Below are positions 3,468 through 41,586 of a DNA stretch of 64,000 nucleotides, one piece after another. The notes beneath the pieces were generated by a model. It was given only the letters and a program-made list of their open reading frames with translations. It ran no database searches and had not been told where the DNA came from. The first letter of the stretch is position 1. Every line of letters begins with the position of its first letter. The DNA comes from a virus (taxonomy: Duplodnaviria > Caudoviricetes). The DNA lies in the IMG/VR virus record IMGVR_UViG_3300009873_000004, positions 19,827 through 83,826 of that record; one strand, written 5' to 3'. A program made the translations under genes and the position numbers.

Positions 3468-4049
3468 TTAGTTCGGCAGCCGGTCGATCCGCGCCAGTTC
3501 CTTCTGGACCAGTTCGATCACGCTGCGCCGGGCCTGCCAGCGCTTCTCCAGATCGAGCAGGGCGTGCAGAAACGGCCGGTGGGTCTCGCGCAGGTAAGCG
3601 ACCGTGACGCGGGTGTTGTCGGTGCGCGGCTGGCCGTTGTCATTGACCAACTGGCCGATAGTGATCATCGCCTTCTGCTGGGGGTTGAGTTCTTTGGCCT
3701 CGACCGAGCACAGGTGGTAGACGAACTGGCGCTGGTCGGGCTTGAGCAGGTTGTCCCACTTCTGGGCGATCGCCAGGTCGCGCTCGACGGGCGGCTCGGT
3801 CGCCCGAGCGCCCTCGAACTTGCCGGTCTTCAGATCGCGCCGGAAGATTCCGTGCTGCTCGTAAACCGGATGAACCTCCACCCAGCGGTTGGGCGGCAGG
3901 ATCAGATCGGGTACGTCTTCCTTGGGCCGGGGGCTGGGATAAGCCAGCGTCCCCGGCCCAGGATTGCGCACGTACAGCCGCTCATTACCGGGCGCGAGCA
4001 GCGCTTCAGCGGCAGCCGCCGCTGCTTTGGTAGCCGATTTGGTTGGCAT
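3468..4049 (-). CDS. Hypothetical head-associated protein
   Basis: SD (AGGAG) before ATG; immediately downstream of the major capsid gene. Confidence 0.6.
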   Translation of the reverse strand: MPTKSATKAAAAAAEALLAPGNERLYVRNPGPGTLAYPSPRPKEDVPDLILPPNRWVEVHPVYEQHGIFRRDLKTGKFEGARATEPPVERDLAIAQKWDNLLKPDQRQFVYHLCSVEAKELNPQQKAMITIGQLVNDNGQPRTDNTRVTVAYLRETHRPFLHALLDLEKRWQARRSVIELVQKELARIDRLPN

Positions 4050-4064
4050 GCCTGATCTCCTAAG

Positions 4065-4078
4065 TTCCAGATTTGGAA
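4065..4078. promoter_or_regulatory. 14-bp palindromic operator-like site TTCCAGATTTGGAA
   Basis: Intergenic between capsid stop and next SD; one of 8 near-identical copies. Confidence 0.6.
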
Positions 4079-4083
4079 GCCGG

Positions 4084-5046
4084 TTAGCTGATGCGGATGC
4101 GGGCCAGGGTCAGCGCCGAGCCGACGTAGTACGAGTGCTCGGCATCGCGGATGGCGTGCAGGTCGACGCCCTTGGTGATGTCGACATCGCTGGCGACGTT
4201 CACCGAGCCCTTGGTCAGGTGCCAGCCGACCATGTCGGCCGGTCCCGCAAACAGCACCTCGTTGGTCGGGAAGTTCGGGTTGGTGAACCAGTCCACCCCG
4301 CCATAGTTCATCAGAATCAGGGTCCGCAGCAGTTGGCGGGCCTCTTCGGGCGGCAGTTGGAAGTTGGTGCCGCCCCAGTTGAAGTCGCCCATCGCCATCA
4401 GCGTGGCGGGGTTCGCCAGGGCGCGAGTGACCGGATAGCCGATCTCGGCCTGGTCCTTGAGCACCGTGTCGACGATGGTCTTGGACAGGTTGGTCGCCAC
4501 CAGGTACTCGTGCGACGGCAGGATGGCCGCCCGCAGGGTGTTGCCCGCCAGTTCATCGCGCTTGCGGGCGAGTTCGGCCGTGGCGTATTCCATCTGCCGC
4601 GCCAGGTAGTTCCAGCCCGCCCGGCGCAGGGCCTTCCACGGCACTTCGACGCCAGTGTCGAAGGTCACGAACTCCGGCCGGACCCAGGAGAAGCCCGAGC
4701 GGACGTACATGATCTCGGAGTCTTCGTGGGTCTGGAAGGCCAGGGCGACGATGTCCTCGACCGGGATGGTGGCGTCTTCCAACTCGCCCACGTTCCAGGG
4801 CTGGTAGAAGACGTCATACATCTCCTGGTAGGGGATGATCTGCCGGATCGGATCCACAAACTGCTGGGCCAGCAGTTCATGGTCTTCCCGCGAGCCCGAG
4901 CGCGACAATTCCGCCAGGAAGGCGTCCATGTCGGCCTGGTTGATGCTGTCGCGGGAAGCGGTCAACTGGTTGCCCGCCAGGTCGTGCGTCCCGACCGTGT
5001 AGCGGCGGTTCTTGAAGTCGTAACCAACGCAGTCTTTGAGAAGCAT
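4084..5046 (-). CDS. Major capsid protein (probable HK97 fold)
   Basis: 320 aa; position after protease/scaffold and decoration gene; capsid-like composition and E-loop/P-domain-like pattern. Confidence 0.7.
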   Translation of the reverse strand: MLLKDCVGYDFKNRRYTVGTHDLAGNQLTASRDSINQADMDAFLAELSRSGSREDHELLAQQFVDPIRQIIPYQEMYDVFYQPWNVGELEDATIPVEDIVALAFQTHEDSEIMYVRSGFSWVRPEFVTFDTGVEVPWKALRRAGWNYLARQMEYATAELARKRDELAGNTLRAAILPSHEYLVATNLSKTIVDTVLKDQAEIGYPVTRALANPATLMAMGDFNWGGTNFQLPPEEARQLLRTLILMNYGGVDWFTNPNFPTNEVLFAGPADMVGWHLTKGSVNVASDVDITKGVDLHAIRDAEHSYYVGSALTLARIRIS

Positions 5047-9738: not shown

Positions 9739-11188
9739 ATTCGCCTCGCGCTCCAATGTCGGACTCTCTCACCCCCCAGTCCATAATATCCACCTGCTTG
9801 AGTTTCTTGCCCCCCGCCTTCAGTTCATAGCGGCTCGACGCCCACTTGAGCAGCCGCTCGATCAGCCATTTCTCCAGCCGGAAGTGGGTAAAGAAGCGCT
9901 TGCGCCAGCGCCAGGAGGCCAGGGCTTCAAGCGGCCAAATAAATGCCCGTCGCCAACCTGGAAAGTTGCGTTCAGTTTTGTCGCCGCGACCACGATGAAA
10001 ATGCAGTCCGCCGATGTGATACAGGTTAGAGGCCCGCACGTCCAGGGTCTGGTTGAGTGAATAGTTGGACCACTCTGCCATTGTTTGGGGCAGGGAATCC
10101 GGATCCACCAACTCAAATAGCGGACTGCCAGGGAGCGCCACATAGGCGTAAAAGTTCTGCGTAAGTCGGCCGTCATGGATACGATTGAGCCGATCCGCCT
10201 GGTCCAGAGTCTCATTGATCTCCTCGGGAGTCTCGGTCGGGAAGCCGGTGATCCAGTAATACAAGGGCCAGATGCCGTGGTTGGCGAGCGCCTGCGCACA
10301 GCGAACCTGGTCGTCCCGCGTAATGTCTTTCTCTGTGAGTTCGAGCATCCGCTTGCTGGCCGTCTCCATGCCGATGGAGATGTGCTTGATGCCCATGTCG
10401 GCCATTTCGCGAGCCACTTCATCTGTGACCTGGTGGGCTCGGATCGACGGGCGGTACTCAATGCCAAGGTCCCGCAGGTAGCGGATGATCTCTCGGGCTC
10501 GGGGCCAGCGACCAATCCAATCGTCACCATGCTCGTATTTCCTGACGCCAGCGTTCTCCAATAGATACTTTACATCCCACTTCCAGCGATCCAGGTCGAC
10601 CGATTGCCAACTGCGCTCGAAGAACTGCTGGATGTAGCAGAAGCCGCACCGAAACGGGCAACCCCTGGACGTCATCAAGACGCTGTCGCCGGTTCGGGCG
10701 GAACGACGAAAGTGAAGGAGGGTGTGTGGACTAACCGGGGAAACATGGTCAGCAGTTCCTGACAGATGTCCATGGGCACGTTGTTTAGGTCCACCGTGTA
10801 TAGCTTCAAGGACTGCCCACTCTCCCTCTGAAAGAACCACAGCGTCAACGTAGTCTTCTGCCAGGCACTGGTCGGGCTGCATGGTGACATGGATACCGCC
10901 CAGGATAGTTCGCTTGCCATGCGCCTTGGCTCCTTTGAGGATCTCGATCGCGCCCTGTAACTGGTAGCCCGTCATCGACGACACGCCTACCACGTCCGGC
11001 CAGGACAGGTCCGGCCAGGGATCGTAGCGCCCATCCCAATAGCGCACGTCGTAGGTCTCATCGCTCTTGCCCCTGGCTTTTGCTTCGACCAGCGCCTGGC
11101 CGACGTGCAGGATCGAAAGCGGCGGGCTCTTCTGCGGCGAGCTAACCGATGGTCGCGGGTAGGCCAGCAGGACTTTAGTCGTGCCCAT
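9656..11188 (-). CDS. Cobalamin-binding radical SAM enzyme (class B methyltransferase-like)
   Basis: N-terminal B12 domain (PPLSILHV, DVVGVSSMT, ILGGIHVT, VVLSEGE); SRGCPFRCGFC CxxxCxxC; IGMETAS; WITGFPTET. Confidence 0.92.
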   Translation of the reverse strand: MGTTKVLLAYPRPSVSSPQKSPPLSILHVGQALVEAKARGKSDETYDVRYWDGRYDPWPDLSWPDVVGVSSMTGYQLQGAIEILKGAKAHGKRTILGGIHVTMQPDQCLAEDYVDAVVLSEGEWAVLEAIHGGPKQRAHGHLSGTADHVSPVSPHTLLHFRRSARTGDSVLMTSRGCPFRCGFCYIQQFFERSWQSVDLDRWKWDVKYLLENAGVRKYEHGDDWIGRWPRAREIIRYLRDLGIEYRPSIRAHQVTDEVAREMADMGIKHISIGMETASKRMLELTEKDITRDDQVRCAQALANHGIWPLYYWITGFPTETPEEINETLDQADRLNRIHDGRLTQNFYAYVALPGSPLFELVDPDSLPQTMAEWSNYSLNQTLDVRASNLYHIGGLHFHRGRGDKTERNFPGWRRAFIWPLEALASWRWRKRFFTHFRLEKWLIERLLKWASSRYELKAGGKKLKQVDIMDWGVRESDIGARGEYGTGELGLGGIGGGGEPPGTHAPPDSL

Positions 11189-12110
11189 CGGCAATACTTT
11201 CCAGATAGCTGTCCCAGCGCCGGACGGTGATGCCCGGATCGAAATGGGTCAGTGTCCAATTGTAGGCCGGGTCGACCATTTCCAGGTAGGGAGCCGGGTC
11301 CCTCAGAAAGGCGTGGATGTGGTTGACGAACTCTTCCGAGTTGCGGGCGAAGTGGGCGAAGCCGCCCGTCGTCTCGCGCAGGGCCGGAATGTCCTGGCAT
11401 ATGACCGGCACCCTGCCCATCTGCGCCTGGGCGACGGAGGTGCAGCAGCACTCGTCCCGTGTGGGGAAGACGAACAACTTCAGGTTGCGATAGAAGATCT
11501 TGGGGTTGACCCAGCCGGTGATCAGGCAGTTGGACGGCGCTCGCTTCTGGCAGACTTCCAGCAACGGCCCGTCTCCGGCTAGGGCAAAGGGCTGTGCTGC
11601 AAAGACCCAGGCCAGGGCGATAAACTCCAGCGGGCACTTCTCGTCCGCCAGGCGGCTGAGTTTTCCGATCACGGTCGGGGTTACTTCCGGATCGCGTTCC
11701 ATGCGCTCAACGATCGCGTAGATCGTGGTGCGGTTGGGCATGCGCAGGTTGCGCTCGGAGGCCAGATGGCTCATCGCCACAAAACCGTCCACCAGTTCGG
11801 GCGGGGTCGGGCTGGCCGCGATCGAGTGCATGCACTCCACGAACTTCGCCCCCCACTCGTGCGCCAATCTGGCGTTGTCGGCATAGCTCCAGCCGCCAAC
11901 CGTGTGGCCGACGACGACTTTGTAAGTGCTCTTGAGTTCTTCCGGGGGTCCGCCTGGGAATAGGCGCATGCCCTCCAAGCGCATCTGCTCGGCCATTGAG
12001 CCATCCGCCGCCCAGAAGTCGTGAACATGCTTGGAGTGCCGGTGCAGGCGCAGCAGGTTGGCCTGGATGCCGCCCCTATGACTCACGTCGAGACAATGAA
12101 GAATATTCAT
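11175..12110 (-). CDS. Glycosyltransferase, GT-B fold (family 4-like)
   Basis: IGKLSRL..EK, LAGDGPL, FVFPTRDECCCTSVAQAQ...VPVICQDIPALRE; start refined to ATG 12110 (MNILHCLD). Confidence 0.85.
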   Translation of the reverse strand: MNILHCLDVSHRGGIQANLLRLHRHSKHVHDFWAADGSMAEQMRLEGMRLFPGGPPEELKSTYKVVVGHTVGGWSYADNARLAHEWGAKFVECMHSIAASPTPPELVDGFVAMSHLASERNLRMPNRTTIYAIVERMERDPEVTPTVIGKLSRLADEKCPLEFIALAWVFAAQPFALAGDGPLLEVCQKRAPSNCLITGWVNPKIFYRNLKLFVFPTRDECCCTSVAQAQMGRVPVICQDIPALRETTGGFAHFARNSEEFVNHIHAFLRDPAPYLEMVDPAYNWTLTHFDPGITVRRWDSYLESIADGHD

Positions 12111-12661
12111 TCCTTCCACGACCTGCCAACAATAATGGCACTAATGTTTGCCCGTTTGACGCCATAGTTGTCAGCCAACTGCTGCTGTGTCATCACACGC
12201 TCCTTGTAGAGCCTGCGTATTTCTCGCACATCATCCCAGGTCAAAACCGCCCTGGCCGCATTTTCCCCTCTCGGGTAAGGCGTCTTGCGATTTTTCTTGA
12301 CTCGCCCCAGGCCATTATCTGTGGCCCGCTTGATATTTTCTAGCTGAGTTACCGGCTCCAGATTGGACGGACAATTGTTGTGCTTATTGCAGTCCTTGTG
12401 ATCGATCTCAAGATCGTCAATAACATCCCCAAAAAAGTAGATGTAGACCACTCGATGCGCCGAGGCCTTGATCGACTGCCCGTCCTTGAATGTCGAAAGC
12501 CTAAGATAGCGCCCAGCATTCTCTGCTCGCTTTGGCTTTTTGAGTCTGATCCTTCCAGCAAACGGATGGATCCACCAATGACGCCAGATTCGGCCTTCAT
12601 CATCAATCGATAGTGTTCCATTTTGGACCAGACTCAGAAAGAACTTCTCCCCAGGTCGCAT
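12107..12661 (-). CDS. HNH homing endonuclease (HNH_3) with C-terminal HTH
   Basis: AHRVVY..FFG, IDHKDCNKHNNCPSNLEPVTQLEN; A.LT..DV.EIR and QQQLADNYGVKRANISAI HTH; ATG 12661 with AAGGAG SD. Confidence 0.92.
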   Translation of the reverse strand: MRPGEKFFLSLVQNGTLSIDDEGRIWRHWWIHPFAGRIRLKKPKRAENAGRYLRLSTFKDGQSIKASAHRVVYIYFFGDVIDDLEIDHKDCNKHNNCPSNLEPVTQLENIKRATDNGLGRVKKNRKTPYPRGENAARAVLTWDDVREIRRLYKERVMTQQQLADNYGVKRANISAIIVGRSWKE

Positions 12662-12695
12662 TGTCATCTCCTTGGTAAAAGATGACAATAGTATA
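12660..12695 (-). promoter_or_regulatory. RBS-sequestering hairpin and -10 box (TATACT) of the HNH gene
   Basis: Perfect 10-bp inverted repeat ATTGTCATCT/AGATGACAAT (12660-12669, 12680-12689) covering part of the SD and the start codon; TATACT at 12690-12695. Confidence 0.7.
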
Positions 12696-12751
12696 CAGCA
12701 AATGGTGGTATTCAGAAAGCCGGTTGGAATTGTCCAGGCAGTGCAGGATAT

Positions 12752-13405
12752 TCATTTCTTGATCCCCAGCCACCAGATGACGACCGGATGCAGGCCATCG
12801 GGCGGCGTGTTCCAGGAAGGCACTTCCTGCTGCGCCAATCGCACCGGGATCCACTCGCCCGTCATGCCCCGGCTGATCTTCGAAGCGTACAGTTCCTGGA
12901 TGATTGCCCGGTTCCCCCAACTGCCGAACTCGACCGTCTCCCACCAGAGCTCCGGGAAGAGAAAGCGGTAGCCGTCAGGCGAGATCCGCCAGCAGTCCAG
13001 GGGAGCCGGGTGAGTTGGATGCAGGTAAGGCGTGGCGACGATCGCCAGCCCACCCGGCTTCAAGACCTTGTAGATCTCCAGCGCAGCAGCGAAGATGTTT
13101 TGCACATGCTCCAGCACCTGGTCGACGATCAGCACGTCCCAATGGCCGGTCCACTCATTGGGCAGAATCTGAATGTCGATCTGTGGGTAGTCACATACCT
13201 GGGCCTCCACCCGCTGGCCGTGCAGGGACTTGAGCATGCGAATGATCGACGTCGTCGGCTCCCTGGCCCCGATCTCCATCACCCGCAAAGGATCGGCCAG
13301 CATCATCGTCCGCTTGAGAGTCGCGAAGATGCGCTCGTACATGACATGGCGCACCAGGTCGTGGTGCGCCCAAGAGCCATCAATCGGCCGCCAGATGTCG
13401 CTCAT
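12752..13405 (-). CDS. Class I SAM-dependent methyltransferase (Methyltransf_11-like)
   Basis: VMEIGA motif I, WDVLIVDQVLEHV, YKVLKPGG, DCWR; start by ATGA coupling. Confidence 0.88.
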   Translation of the reverse strand: MSDIWRPIDGSWAHHDLVRHVMYERIFATLKRTMMLADPLRVMEIGAREPTTSIIRMLKSLHGQRVEAQVCDYPQIDIQILPNEWTGHWDVLIVDQVLEHVQNIFAAALEIYKVLKPGGLAIVATPYLHPTHPAPLDCWRISPDGYRFLFPELWWETVEFGSWGNRAIIQELYASKISRGMTGEWIPVRLAQQEVPSWNTPPDGLHPVVIWWLGIKK

Positions 13406-17471: not shown

Positions 17472-19862
17472 CTAGAGTCGACGACGGCGCAGCCGCCCGT
17501 TGACGGGCGTCTTCAGCCCCTCCTCCACCATGGCCGCGATCTCGTTGCGGTGCGAGGGCACCGGCATCTCGATCGACGGGATGGCTCCCACAAAGTATTG
17601 CAGGTAGAGCGCCTGCGCCCCGCACATCTCGTTGGGGTGCATGACGATAAAGGGCTCGGTGCTGGCATGCACGATCTGGCTGTCAGCCACGCACAGCGGA
17701 CAGGGTCCCGAGGCGCTCTTCTCCGGGTGCAGCACCCGCCGCCAGTGGGACGCGCCCTGCTGCTGAAAGGCGAACATCTGCCCGTTGAGGACCGCCATCT
17801 TATAGCCCTCTTGCGGGTAGAGCATCGCCCGCCAGGCGATGCGGGCCGTCTGGTGCTCGTCGGTGGCGTTCAGATCTTCCAAGAAGCCGTCCGCAAAGGC
17901 GTTGATCCAGGCCGACGACTGGTCGAGCCATTCGTCCAGCGCCGCGCCATTGACGGTCCCAAACGCCCCGCCACTGGCCTCATAGCTGGCCCGCCCGATC
18001 AGCCGGGTGAAGCTGGCGTTGTGCATCTTGAGCGCGGCGATAAAGGCGGCCGGATCCCCCCGCTCCCAGAGCAATTCGCGCAGGGCGGCATAGATCTCGG
18101 CAAACCAGGCCTTGCGATCCGCTTCGTCGTCGGCTGCCTTGAGCGAGGTCTTGGGCCGACCCTGCGGCTTGGTCTGGCTGACGGTCTTGCTCGCGCCGTT
18201 CGGACCCGCCACGGTCTGGGAGAAGGAAGCCGGAGGCCCGAACTTCTCCTTGTTGGGATCGAACTCCTTCTTGCGCTCCAGTTCGGTCTCGTAATCGTAC
18301 CCGGATCGTTCCAGCGTCGTCTGCGGGCTGATCAAGCCGATGGTGTACAACGGCTGGAGTTCTTTCTCGATCTGGCTGCCGACCTCCAGCAGGGACTTGG
18401 AGAACCCGACCTTGGCCGAAGCAATCTTTTCGGCTGCCCTGGACCCGTCGCGCTCGGCCCAGCGGCGGCGATAGCCCTGCTCCCACTTCAAGACCTGCGT
18501 GCGGGCAAACTCCAGCCGCCGCAGGTACATGGTCAGGTCGATGTCCAGGCCCTGGTCGCCGCCTGACGAGCCCGAGAGCAGCTTGTTGCCGGTCGCCAGT
18601 CGGATGTTGGAGCCCAGGTCGCGGTAAACCGCCAGGGTCATCGACTGGTCGATCTGGTCGCCGATGGCGGCTTCCAACCCCTCGGGCACGATCACCTTGA
18701 CTTCCAGCCCGAAGCGCCAAACCAGGTCGCCCGTTCGCTGGCCGTTGAGACCGCCGATGGCGGCCTTGAGCGCGGCCATCTCCTTGGGCGAAGGCGGCAT
18801 GTCCTTGGTGCCCAGGACGAAGAGCCACAACTGGTTCTTGTAGCCTTCGAGCAAGGCCCGGCGCATCTCGCGATAAACCGCCCGCGTCGAGATCGAGCGG
18901 AAGGCGCGAGCATACGGCGGCAGGGGATAGCGCTGCCAGTCAAAGGCCTTGGCCCTGACCGGGTAGAGGTAGTTGGGGTTGATCGGGATGCCCCAGCCCT
19001 GGAGCACCTGCTCATTGAAGTCCGGCCCGAAAGCGTTGTAGGTCATCGGCCGGAAGGCGTTCTGCACCAGATCCTGGGTCCAGGTCTCGCTGTTGTTGAG
19101 CGGCCGGATGGCGTAGGGAGTCGCGGCGTTCTGCGGCAGGCGGGCCTGCTGGCCGTAGGTCAGATGGTTGCCGACCCAGATGTAGCGCGGGGGCAGCATG
19201 AAGATGCTTTCGGCCTGGCCGGTGGCCTTGTCCTGCGGGATCTCGATCGGATAGGCCGAGCCCCACACCCCGACGCACATCATCAACTGGTAAAGCACAT
19301 GGCGCATGTCGATCCCATGCACCGAATAGTGCTCCTGAAGCTGCTTCTCCAGGCCCTTGTCCTTGGGGACCGAGACGGTGATCTCGGGCGAGATCGCCAC
19401 GTCGATGGCGCTCTCCAGGTGCTGCCAGACATCGCCCTCGGTGTTGTTGTAATACTCCGAGAGGTTCATGGCCGAGCGAATGGCGGCCGGGATCGGATCC
19501 GGTGGCCGCTCGTCTTTTCGAGGCTCCTGCCCAACCAGACCGCCCCGGTAATCCGGATCCGGGTCGAGCATCGCCACCAGGCTGTTGAAGCGGTTGGCTG
19601 CCTCCACCAGGACCGGGTCCCGGCGATCAATCGTCTTGCCGCGCTCGCCCTGCCCCACCAGCCGCTCGACCTTGGCGTACAGATCGCTGTCGGGCGTCCG
19701 GTTCCAGATCACCGGAAAGCCAAACTCTCCAGCCTCGTCGTGCTTGGACTGGAGAGTCAGCAGGTCTTTCTCGCGCTTGGAGATGAAGCGCTGGTTGTGG
19801 TTGTCCCACCAGCGCCGGTTCTTGTTCTTGTAGACGAAACGCTCGGTTGGCTTCTTGGGCAT
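17472..19862 (-). CDS. Portal protein with C-terminal MuF/head-morphogenesis-like domain
   Basis: About 800 aa between terminase and protease; portal-like central region; C-terminal WRRVLH..S..GPCPLC...HPNEMC resembles the MuF CxxC...HPNCRC motif. Confidence 0.7.
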   Translation of the reverse strand: MPKKPTERFVYKNKNRRWWDNHNQRFISKREKDLLTLQSKHDEAGEFGFPVIWNRTPDSDLYAKVERLVGQGERGKTIDRRDPVLVEAANRFNSLVAMLDPDPDYRGGLVGQEPRKDERPPDPIPAAIRSAMNLSEYYNNTEGDVWQHLESAIDVAISPEITVSVPKDKGLEKQLQEHYSVHGIDMRHVLYQLMMCVGVWGSAYPIEIPQDKATGQAESIFMLPPRYIWVGNHLTYGQQARLPQNAATPYAIRPLNNSETWTQDLVQNAFRPMTYNAFGPDFNEQVLQGWGIPINPNYLYPVRAKAFDWQRYPLPPYARAFRSISTRAVYREMRRALLEGYKNQLWLFVLGTKDMPPSPKEMAALKAAIGGLNGQRTGDLVWRFGLEVKVIVPEGLEAAIGDQIDQSMTLAVYRDLGSNIRLATGNKLLSGSSGGDQGLDIDLTMYLRRLEFARTQVLKWEQGYRRRWAERDGSRAAEKIASAKVGFSKSLLEVGSQIEKELQPLYTIGLISPQTTLERSGYDYETELERKKEFDPNKEKFGPPASFSQTVAGPNGASKTVSQTKPQGRPKTSLKAADDEADRKAWFAEIYAALRELLWERGDPAAFIAALKMHNASFTRLIGRASYEASGGAFGTVNGAALDEWLDQSSAWINAFADGFLEDLNATDEHQTARIAWRAMLYPQEGYKMAVLNGQMFAFQQQGASHWRRVLHPEKSASGPCPLCVADSQIVHASTEPFIVMHPNEMCGAQALYLQYFVGAIPSIEMPVPSHRNEIAAMVEEGLKTPVNGRLRRRRL

Positions 19863-20089: not shown

Positions 20090-20378
20090 AGATCCCCAGA
20101 AGATGTGGATAGAGACGAGGCAGGTCGAGCTTATACAGATCCCACATCAATGTGACCAACTGCTCGGTATTCGGCTCACGCCCGTTGTGGTGCGCCATGT
20201 GGCAGGCGTGGCACAGGGAAATGCACAGGTCCTCCACATCCGTAGACTCCCCCTTCCGGCGACAGATGTGGTGGACATCTGTCGCCGGGTTGAGGGCGTT
20301 GTCTTCGGGACGGTACAGGCACCACAGGCACCACGGCCCATCACGCTCCGCTGCCCGGCACTGGGCTTGAGTTCTCAC
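20061..20378 (-). CDS. Small HNH nuclease (possibly packaging-associated)
   Basis: RD...CLWC...ATDVHHI......D.EDLCISLCHACH. Confidence 0.75.
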   Translation of the reverse strand: MRTQAQCRAAERDGPWCLWCLYRPEDNALNPATDVHHICRRKGESTDVEDLCISLCHACHMAHHNGREPNTEQLVTLMWDLYKLDLPRLYPHLLGIYAVDHSSET

Positions 20379-40588: not shown

Positions 40589-40902
40589 GGCAATACAAGT
40601 ACGAGAACTACACCCTGGTCCTGGAGGTGGTCGGCGAGGATGGGCACGGCAAGCCCCGCGTACGCTACCACCTGTTCGACCAGGACGGCACGATCTTCGA
40701 GGGGAATGATTTCTATTCCTGGGACGGATCCGATCCCAAGAGCGCCGAGGGGCTGCTGGGATTCCTGACCCTGCGCCAGGGCGATGTGGAGGAGGACTAT
40801 TTCAAGGACTACACCGAGCGCCAGCTCAAGTTCCGCGACAACGAAGCCGAAGACCTGTATTTCTGGCAGGAAGAACTCAACCCGGAGGCCTACAAGGAAT
40901 GA
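40585..40902 (+). CDS. Hypothetical acidic protein
   Basis: GGAGG SD, GTGA coupling. Confidence 0.65.
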   Translation: MRQYKYENYTLVLEVVGEDGHGKPRVRYHLFDQDGTIFEGNDFYSWDGSDPKSAEGLLGFLTLRQGDVEEDYFKDYTERQLKFRDNEAEDLYFWQEELNPEAYKE

Positions 40903-41393
40903 CCCGCCAGCCTGAATGGGAATTGATCGACAACCTGGGCGACCAGGGCGACCCAATCGCTTATGGCGGCTTTTGGGTTTACCGAGACACGACCGGCGTC
41001 TACGAGGAAGAGGCTGAATACTGGGAGCCCTTGGATGATACCCCCAAAGGATTCGCCTACCGCTTCAGCCTGGAGCGCTGCGGCCTGCACGAAGGCCACC
41101 TGGTCCACAAGCGCATCCTGGACAAGCATCCCGACCTGCCCTATCCGCTCGATCGCTACACCAAGTGGTTTGATGACCACATTGACGCTGTGGCCGACTT
41201 TCAAGGACTCCAGCCGGACGAACTGCGGGCCAGCTTCTGCTCAGAAGATCCGATCGCCCGCGCCTGGGCCTATCGGTCCCTGGGCGAATACTTCGGCTTC
41301 TTCGAACTGGACCAGTACCCGCTCGAACTGACGATCGAAGAGGCTCAGGAGCGCTATGGCGATGAAGATCAACAAGCAGGTTCTGAAGACTGA
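40899..41393 (+). CDS. Hypothetical acidic protein
   Basis: ATGA-coupled. Confidence 0.65.
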   Translation: MTRQPEWELIDNLGDQGDPIAYGGFWVYRDTTGVYEEEAEYWEPLDDTPKGFAYRFSLERCGLHEGHLVHKRILDKHPDLPYPLDRYTKWFDDHIDAVADFQGLQPDELRASFCSEDPIARAWAYRSLGEYFGFFELDQYPLELTIEEAQERYGDEDQQAGSED

Positions 41394-41586
41394 AGTCAGC
41401 TACCTGATCCTGCCCCAGGGCGTGCGCTGCCAGTCGATTGACGAGGTGGTCGAGAAGCGCCGCAAACTGGCGGGCGAGACCTGGGTCCGGGAATACACGC
41501 TCGTCACCAAGGCCATCACCATCGAGCATGGGGGCCGCAAAACCCGCGTCAAAGGGGAGTATCTGACCAGCAAAGGAGTGGAATGA
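41356..41586 (+). CDS. Hypothetical basic protein
   Basis: AGGAG SD. Confidence 0.55.
   Translation: MAMKINKQVLKTEVSYLILPQGVRCQSIDEVVEKRRKLAGETWVREYTLVTKAITIEHGGRKTRVKGEYLTSKGVE

Follow-up and report, generated by a model that had tools for sequence, protein, structure and literature searches.

A probable start-replacing homing cassette with an HNH endonuclease gene in a glycosyltransferase gene of a Caudoviricetes virus

In the present study we have analysed a stretch of 64,000 nucleotides (the window) from an 83,826-bp IMG/VR virus record with direct terminal repeats (IMGVR_UViG_3300009873_000004, Caudoviricetes, positions 19,827 to 83,826), in which the start of a glycosyltransferase (GT) gene is found twice, on both sides of a gene for an HNH endonuclease. 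We propose that the 645 nt inserted between codons 12 and 13 of the GT gene probably represent a homing cassette of a terminus-replacing type, which keeps the GT whole without splicing. The proposal is based on the anatomy of the locus, the foreign composition of the insert, the finding of the element at the equivalent site of other phages and the lack of an intron signature. Inside genes, homing endonuclease genes are generally described as persisting only by means of self-splicing introns or inteins; phage endonuclease genes otherwise lie between genes or split them.

Results

The start of the GT gene is duplicated

The peptide MNILHCLD is opened by two start codons of the minus strand that lie 645 nt from each other. 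The upstream copy, ATGAATATCCTGCACTGCCTGGAC (12755-12732), begins with an ATG that overlaps the TGA of the open reading frame (ORF) of the methyltransferase MT_B (13405-12752), and in the downstream copy, ATGAATATTCTTCATTGTCTCGAC (12110-12087), the ATG shares bases with the TGA that ends the HNH ORF (12661-12107). When MNILHCLD was searched for as a degenerate pattern, the window gave two matches, both at this locus, with none expected from 100 shuffles. The two 24-nt copies are identical at 19 of 24 nt and all five mismatches are synonymous third positions, an outcome whose chance with five random substitutions in codons 2-8 is about 1e-4. Because the pattern has only these two matches, none of them expected by chance, and the odds of all-silent changes are so low, the duplicated start is considered real. 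The pair of starts flanking the HNH gene, with its five synonymous changes, had been described in an earlier reading made from the sequence alone, and both the sequence and the pattern scan agree with it. A genome-wide scan for repeated 7-residue peptides gave no further non-low-complexity pair opening at two start codons.

The likeness of the copies extends to codon 12, with NSNR upstream and VSHR downstream. In codons 9-12 the copies differ at 8 of 12 nt, including Arg CGG vs AGG and Ser TCC vs AGT, the latter being a switch between two unconnected serine codon sets; over the full 36 nt there are 14 differences, and identical runs reach 8 nt at most. The N-terminal consensus of the GT family, obtained from 64 GT homologues, is M-x-[IV]-L-H-x-L-D-N-S-N-[RLI]-G-G-I-Q-E. 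The upstream copy (hereafter the stub), MNILHCLDNSNR, follows this consensus through codon 12 and then runs out of the GT frame, whereas the functional GT opens with MNILHCLDVSHR-GGIQANLL. The duplication therefore comprises 12 codons and the insertion point lies between codons 12 and 13. This reconstruction of an uninterrupted GT is supported by P0003, the nearest GT relative in a quick tree, which reads ..LDNSNRGGIQANLLRLH, that is, the stub followed exactly by codons 13 onward of the window gene. An insertion at codon 8, as first suggested, is not compatible with the family consensus or with P0003.

The upstream copy is native and the downstream copy foreign

The comparison of the two copies with their surroundings makes it possible to see which of them belongs to the resident genome. 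The G+C content at third codon positions (GC3) is 9/11 in codons 2-12 of the stub and 4/11 in the same codons of the downstream copy (hereafter the surrogate), the lowest value of any 11-codon window of the GT gene (binomial P 7e-4). The GC3 is 83% in MT_B, 83% in the GT body from codon 13 onward and 58% in the HNH ORF, and the G+C content of the insert is ~0.47-0.52 vs ~0.62 in the flanks. The GC3 step and the low G+C thus define a foreign block at 12719-12075, of 645 nt, and leave the stub at 12755-12720 as the resident start; the bounds of the cassette were set by the stub end, the GC3 step at codon 12|13 and the alignment with the related metagenome contig L016 described below. Furthermore, when codons 9-12 are compared with AATTCTAACCGT of the related locus L012, the stub matches at 10 of 12 nt vs 3 of 12 for the surrogate. 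The reverse assignment, with the downstream copy native and the upstream one foreign, was rejected, since codon usage, family consensus and P0003 say the opposite. All these comparisons indicate that the upstream copy is the native stub, and the resident-type G/C-ending codons attributed to it in the sequence-only reading are confirmed by its GC3.

The surrogate differs from the stub also at the protein level, and its codons 9-12 resemble natural variants of the family, such as LDVSHRGGIQ in P0004 and (G/V)LSY in L016 and in a second contig, L019. A fragment of a foreign GT allele is therefore the simpler origin, and the surrogate more likely represents a co-converted fragment of another GT allele than the product of active recoding. 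The earlier suggestion that the endonuclease had recoded its own target thus holds for the differently spelled replacement start, and is less likely for an active rewrite, as codons 9-12 encode different residues of a kind found naturally in the family.

The features of the locus are listed below with their window coordinates and, in brackets, the evidence.

13986-13402, minus strand: MT_A, class I methyltransferase
12752-13405, minus strand: MT_B, class I methyltransferase, whose TGA overlaps the ATG of the native GT stub (ORF and Pfam Methyltransf_11/23)
12720-12755, minus strand: native stub, original GT codons 1-12, MNILHCLDNSNR, upstream of the insert (family consensus, GC3, P0003)
12603-12755, minus strand: orphan 50-codon ORF from the stub ATG (frame of the ORF 12603-12944)
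12075-12719, minus strand: inserted cassette, 645 nt, with leader, HNH ORF and surrogate GT codons 1-12
12662-12719, minus strand: cassette leader, 58 nt (DNA alignment with L016)
12660-12689, minus strand: 13-bp hairpin over the HNH ribosome site (RNA folding)
12107-12661, minus strand: free-standing HNH gene, 184 aa, with an HNH_3 core and a C-terminal helix-turn-helix of weak match (Pfam, I-HmuI profile match)
12075-12110, minus strand: surrogate GT start, codons 1-12, MNILHCLDVSHR, whose ATG overlaps the HNH TGA (low GC3)
11175-12110, minus strand: chimeric GT gene, intact, GT-B, Glyco_trans_1_4, 311 aa (Pfam)

The order on the minus strand is MT_A, MT_B, the HNH_3 ORF, the GT and then a B12-binding radical SAM enzyme. 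The GT retains all 42 invariant columns of a 30-member alignment and the chimeric gene is predicted to be functional.

The inserted gene resembles I-HmuI

The HNH ORF, whose frame differs from that of the GT, matches Pfam HNH_3 with an E of 9e-12 and 44.9 bits (cut-off 24.8). At its C-terminus a match to HTH_3 (E 0.0019, 18.6 bits) falls under the cut-off of 23, and a weak profile match to the helix-turn-helix protein 8TAC was also obtained (E 0.0014). A profile made of the HNH protein and four homologues (52-62% identity) matches I-HmuI (PDB 1U3E) over the HNH core with an E of 1e-10. The residues D87, H88, N96, N100, E108 and N109 are invariant in five homologues; with these catalytic D-H, N, N and E-N columns invariant, the HNH gene looks intact. 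A tblastn search of GenBank phages with the HNH protein returned only distant relatives (identity of 39% or less), annotated as HNH homing endonucleases, in Bacillus, Staphylococcus, Escherichia and other phages. As judged from these matches, the protein is an I-HmuI-like homing endonuclease.

In the leader, the AGGAG ribosome site and the AU of the HNH AUG are buried in a hairpin of 13 bp (12689-12660). The 96-nt stretch containing it folds at -23.6 kcal/mol with a z of -1.8, and in L016 the ribosome site is paired with a different upstream arm, UUCCUCCA, with a z of -3.0; both values give modest support. Sequestered ribosome sites are already known for endonuclease genes of T4 (Edgell et al. 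2010, PMC2988022). The DNA alignment of the window and L016 cassettes reveals the leader motifs CTGAAT-n-CC-n-CCA ... TATACTATT-n-TCA in both. The orphan ORF that begins at the stub crosses the ribosome site and the start of the HNH gene out of frame and ends 59 nt inside the HNH ORF. The layout in L016 (848-991, plus strand) is alike, with the stub ORF ending at 991 and the HNH gene starting at 933, so that it also ends 59 nt inside the HNH ORF, and a translational interplay between the orphan stub ORF and the hairpin may exist. A sigma-70 scan gave matches only at the hairpin arms and at one site overlapping the GT start.

A separate observation concerns L019, where a sigma-70-like sequence, TTGACT-17-TACAAT, precedes a very stable hairpin leader that runs straight up to the HNH gene (93-230); its 101 nt fold at -33.5 kcal/mol with a z of -2.7 and have no Rfam match.

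The insertion point lies in a conserved island and shows no intron signature

Among the HNH-less alleles and the reconstructed native gene the mean pairwise nucleotide identity of the GT is 0.53. In a conservation scan with 10-codon windows, codons 8-17, which span the insertion point, reach 0.70 and rank 7 of 235 windows; only two islands of the gene are more conserved. Homing endonucleases typically aim at conserved islands (PMC2988022).

A search with Rfam models found no intron family at the window locus, even at E<=10, and no intron or other relevant RNA in L016 and L019. Outside the HNH ORF and the surrogate start only the leader of ~58 nt is left, and with a complete start and 12 replacement codons overlapping the HNH stop, splicing is unnecessary. 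The view of the insert as a non-intron element, already held in the sequence-only reading, is thus sustained. The hallmarks of a target-site duplication are missing too: the repeats are not identical, with 14 differences in 36 nt, and the sole ORF of the insert is the HNH_3 endonuclease gene.

The element recurs at the same site in related phages

A scan of JGI metagenome contigs with the GT alignment gave 8 loci. In two contigs, L016 and L019, an HNH homologue ends at the GT start, and the proteins are 57-59% identical to the HNH protein of the window.

L016: HNH gene 933-1484, GT from 1487
L019: HNH gene 248-802, GT from 802

The HNH stop and the GT start overlap in ATGA in L016 and in GTGA in L019, as they do in ATGA in the window, so that the replacement start and its overlap with the endonuclease stop, first described for the window, hold in three independent loci. 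In L016 a consensus-type stub is present at 848-880, TTG AAA GTT CTC CAC AAC CTT GAC AAT TCG CAC, that is, (M)KVLHNLDNSH; an unrelated ORF upstream ends in a stop that overlaps with this stub, and the functional GT of this contig opens with MKLLHCLDGLSY-GGIQ. The left junction of the insert is common to the window and L016 within 4 nt.

The loci L003, L012, L014, L015 and L017 have the GT junction without this HNH element. The HNH-less relatives with which the sequence-only reading proposed a comparison therefore exist; among them, L014 has the same methyltransferase-GT adjacency, with MT_B directly before the GT. The presence of the element at this one homologous GT site is thus sporadic, three loci having it and five lacking it (with a weakly resolved tree). 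In the quick GT tree the window groups with P0003, and L016 and L019 are placed elsewhere, with weak branch support.

Over residues 13-117 the identity between the GT bodies of L016 and L019 is 57%, no higher than that of either to the HNH-less alleles; despite this, both proteins have the unusual (G/V)LSY at codons 9-12 and share 9 of their first 12 residues. The consensus Asn at codon 9 is missing from all three element-linked starts. Since (G/V)LSY is common to two GTs whose bodies are otherwise no closer to each other than to other alleles, the surrogate tracks the endonuclease gene and not the GT body, which suggests, on the thin basis of three loci and four codons, that the mobile unit consists of the endonuclease gene and the surrogate start.

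In GenBank phages no match was found by blastn with the locus or by tblastn with the GT. The scans of IMG/VR with the GT, the HNH protein and their alignments gave the relatives L003 (= L008, L010) and L011, and those made with the HNH protein and its alignment gave no HNH relative. Nothing was found in GTDB genomes with the GT and HNH alignments. Two matches to the MNILHCLD DNA pattern, L007 and L009, were discarded as chance matches.

Other endonuclease genes were observed in the neighbourhood of related GT genes. At the MT_B|GT junction of another metagenome phage, L018 (688-1161), lies a different one, which codes for 157 aa with HNH_3 and AP2. It ends in a stop codon overlapping the ATG of the GT, and a stub was not detected. 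Endonuclease genes seem to have a hot spot at the GT start. In the IMG/VR relative L003 (2691-3206 and 5142-5902) an HNH_3-AP2 gene lies between MT_B and MT_A, and the radical SAM gene has shrunk to 126 codons (the N-terminal 50 residues and a C-terminal part), followed by another HNH-like ORF.

Further observations in the same genome

The GH25 endolysin locus of the same genome (L002:1140-1760; C1 ~3820-4440), outside the window, is a candidate second case. An HNH_3 gene broken by a TGA into the ORFs 1225-1458 and 1459-1704 lies on the plus strand, upstream of the GH25 gene and opposite to it. The GH25 gene, on the minus strand, opens with MIHILDSSK at ~1144, and a candidate stub, MKKIRIIDLSK, is found beyond the broken HNH_3 gene, also on the minus strand.

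Within the window, peptide words are repeated at a spacing of 540-552 nt in 166-1024 and of 639 nt in 40764-41422, which suggests internal coding repeats in both places. At 20184-20330 (minus strand) a weak match to PF01844, the classical HNH family (E 0.0015, under the cut-off), lies in a 151-aa frame that may be another nuclease gene.

Discussion

Proposed mechanism

We propose that the HNH enzyme would nick or cut HNH-less GT alleles in the conserved ..LDNSNR|GGIQ.. island, at about codon 12|13, and that the break would be repaired from an element-bearing genome, the right end pairing with the GT body and the left end pairing with the short stub or being joined through microhomology. In this way the recipient would gain the endonuclease gene together with the surrogate start of the donor, and its own first 12 codons would be pushed upstream as a dead stub, which would explain why each stub matches the resident genome. 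The divergent spelling of the surrogate, heaviest beside the junction, would turn the occupied allele into an unfavourable target, which would not be cut again; moreover, identical runs of at most 8 nt would be too little for repeat recombination to delete the element. In this scheme we infer the cleavage specificity, the immunity, the repair route and the present-day activity from the arrangement of the sequences.

Several points weigh against the proposal. The target site, the immunity and the current activity are all deduced in this manner. The element-bearing loci are only three, namely the window, L016 and L019, and in L019 no stub was found in the available 247 nt upstream of the HNH gene. 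The left homology between distant phages amounts to just ~33-36 nt. The V at codon 9 of the surrogate is also present in some members of the GT family, for example P0004, so a non-consensus surrogate is no proof of selection for resistance. Finally, the quick GT tree is compatible with a single origin of the element and hence with old vertical inheritance.

Alternative explanations

The strongest competitor, which we nevertheless regard as unlikely, is an ordinary intergenic free-standing endonuclease gene, the stub being a one-off by-product of one-sided illegitimate break repair and the surrogate simply the donor's own GT start. The gene order before the GT is indeed very variable (MT_B, MT_A, a zinc-ribbon ORF, small ORFs), L019 has its HNH gene before the GT without a visible stub, the unrelated HNH_3-AP2 gene of L018 occupies the same intergenic position, again with no stub, and one-sided illegitimate repair is documented in T4 (PMC2988022). 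However, the window and L016 have both the left junction (within 4 nt) and the leader in common, while their GT bodies are only ~46-49% identical and their upstream genes unrelated, and independent accidents are unlikely to match in this way. This explanation may well complement the homing cassette as an account of its beginnings: an intergenic endonuclease gene may have given rise to the first cassette through one-sided illegitimate repair, and the layouts of L019 and L018 may be that precursor state.

An ancient, vertically inherited and now immobile insertion, whose stub was kept as something useful, for instance as a coupled leader ORF controlling the translation of the HNH or GT gene, appears improbable. 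It would account for the junction common to the window and L016 and for the stub ORFs, which in both loci have one frame relation and run 59 nt into the HNH gene, and the tree does not require more than one origin. Nevertheless, the HNH island has not drifted toward the composition of the genome and the surrogate retains a foreign codon usage; the window GT is grouped apart from L016 and L019, with HNH-less alleles in between; and a 12-codon stub devoid of a role is unlikely to have stayed at consensus over the time implied by 57% HNH identity unless it was renewed at each homing event.

We attach very little probability to a group I intron or other spliced element carrying an HNH ORF, in which the stub would be exon 1, joined to codon 13. 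In Bacillus phages, HNH enzymes of the I-HmuI type are as a rule encoded in introns, and Rfam models can miss ORF-containing introns; against this stand the empty Rfam search at E<=10, a leader of ~58 nt that is too small for a ribozyme core, the in-frame start with 12 replacement codons overlapping the HNH stop and the HNH-GT unit of L019, which has no upstream exon. An assembly artefact or a transposon-type target-site duplication is hardly credible, as nothing more specific than the direct repeats flanking the insert speaks for it, while these repeats have 14 differences in 36 nt, distributed in a codon-aware manner, transposase and terminal inverted repeats are missing and the same architecture is present in the independent metagenome contig L016.

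Relation to known systems

The mechanism of the cassette is not new in kind, being the mirror image of two precedents, the WHO elements and the mORF hybrids (PMC7282813, PMC3630166); what is new with respect to them is the replacement of a 5' end, the HNH enzyme and the phage host. The WHO elements are found at FBA1 in Torulaspora and Lachancea yeasts, and their cleavage, their allele specificity and the use of the leftover fragment as recombination homology have been worked out experimentally (Coughlan et al. 2020, eLife, PMC7282813). In both systems an endonuclease gene lies inside a conserved coding gene without splicing and the host gene becomes a chimera; the mobile unit consists of the endonuclease gene and a divergent copy of the displaced gene end, which confers resistance in WHO; and beyond the endonuclease gene there remains a fragment of the recipient's own end, which in WHO provides homology for recombination. 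WHO replaces the 3' end; in the phage cassette it is the 5' end that is exchanged, so that a start codon and the means of its translation have to come with it, which is achieved by the stop/start overlap. Furthermore, the WHO enzyme is an intein-like LAGLIDADG-zinc finger protein and that of the cassette belongs to HNH_3, and WHO acts in yeast nuclear chromosomes at meiosis, whereas the cassette resides in a phage and is known here from its sequence.

Mitochondrial mORF gene hybrids have been described in atp6, atp9, cox2 and nad3 of Glomus (Beaudet et al. 2013, PMC3630166) and, as cited in that paper, in atp6 of Allomyces macrogynus (Paquin, Laforest and Lang 1994). They show the same succession of a foreign terminus, an endonuclease ORF and the native terminus as a remnant, and also there the remnant resembles the relatives while the inserted copy has diverged, many of its differences being silent. 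In contrast to the phage cassette, mORFs replace carboxy-terminal ends, their ORF is often in phase with the host gene, the enzymes are LAGLIDADG or GIY-YIG and the genomes are those of organelles.

Among phages, T4 provides the Seg and Mob enzymes of intronless homing and, together with Aeh1, gene-splitting cases, with mobE in nrdA of Aeh1 and mobA in gene 39/60 of T4 (PMC2988022). The cassette has in common with them a free-standing phage endonuclease, a conserved coding island as its presumed target, a ribosome site sequestered in a hairpin, flanking sequence that in the cassette would be co-converted and a sporadic distribution among relatives. The Seg and Mob genes, however, are intergenic or split a gene into two polypeptides that reassemble, whereas the cassette duplicates and replaces 12 codons and leaves one full-length protein; the review of T4 describes intergenic and gene-splitting endonuclease genes and no such duplication (PMC2988022). 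I-HmuI, the nicking HNH enzyme of Bacillus phage SPO1 and the closest solved relative, shares the HNH core and perhaps a C-terminal tail of helix-turn-helix type, but it is encoded in a self-splicing group I intron and the HNH gene of the cassette has no intron. Our literature searches found no phage case of a duplicated or replaced gene start beside a homing endonuclease gene.

Implications

According to the proposed mechanism, a phage element enters a conserved coding island and mends the damage at the DNA level by means of a substitute gene start. The resulting genes would be chimeras whose first codons have a separate history, a caveat for both phylogeny and annotation, where stubs may also be miscalled as small ORFs. 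With some doubt, we put forward the wider possibility that phages harbour widespread unrecognised start-replacing homing elements, in which the surrogate 5' end is an integral and selected part of the mobile unit, the GT and the GH25 endolysin being two independent cases in this genome. If this were true, the surrogate start would give self-immunity, protection from deletion by repeat recombination and translational coupling, and there would be a third route, beside introns and inteins, for endonuclease genes into conserved coding sequence. The cassette would represent a natural compact system of target-site immunity and short-homology repair in phages, and would extend to bacterial viruses a mechanism proven in yeast for WHO and HO.

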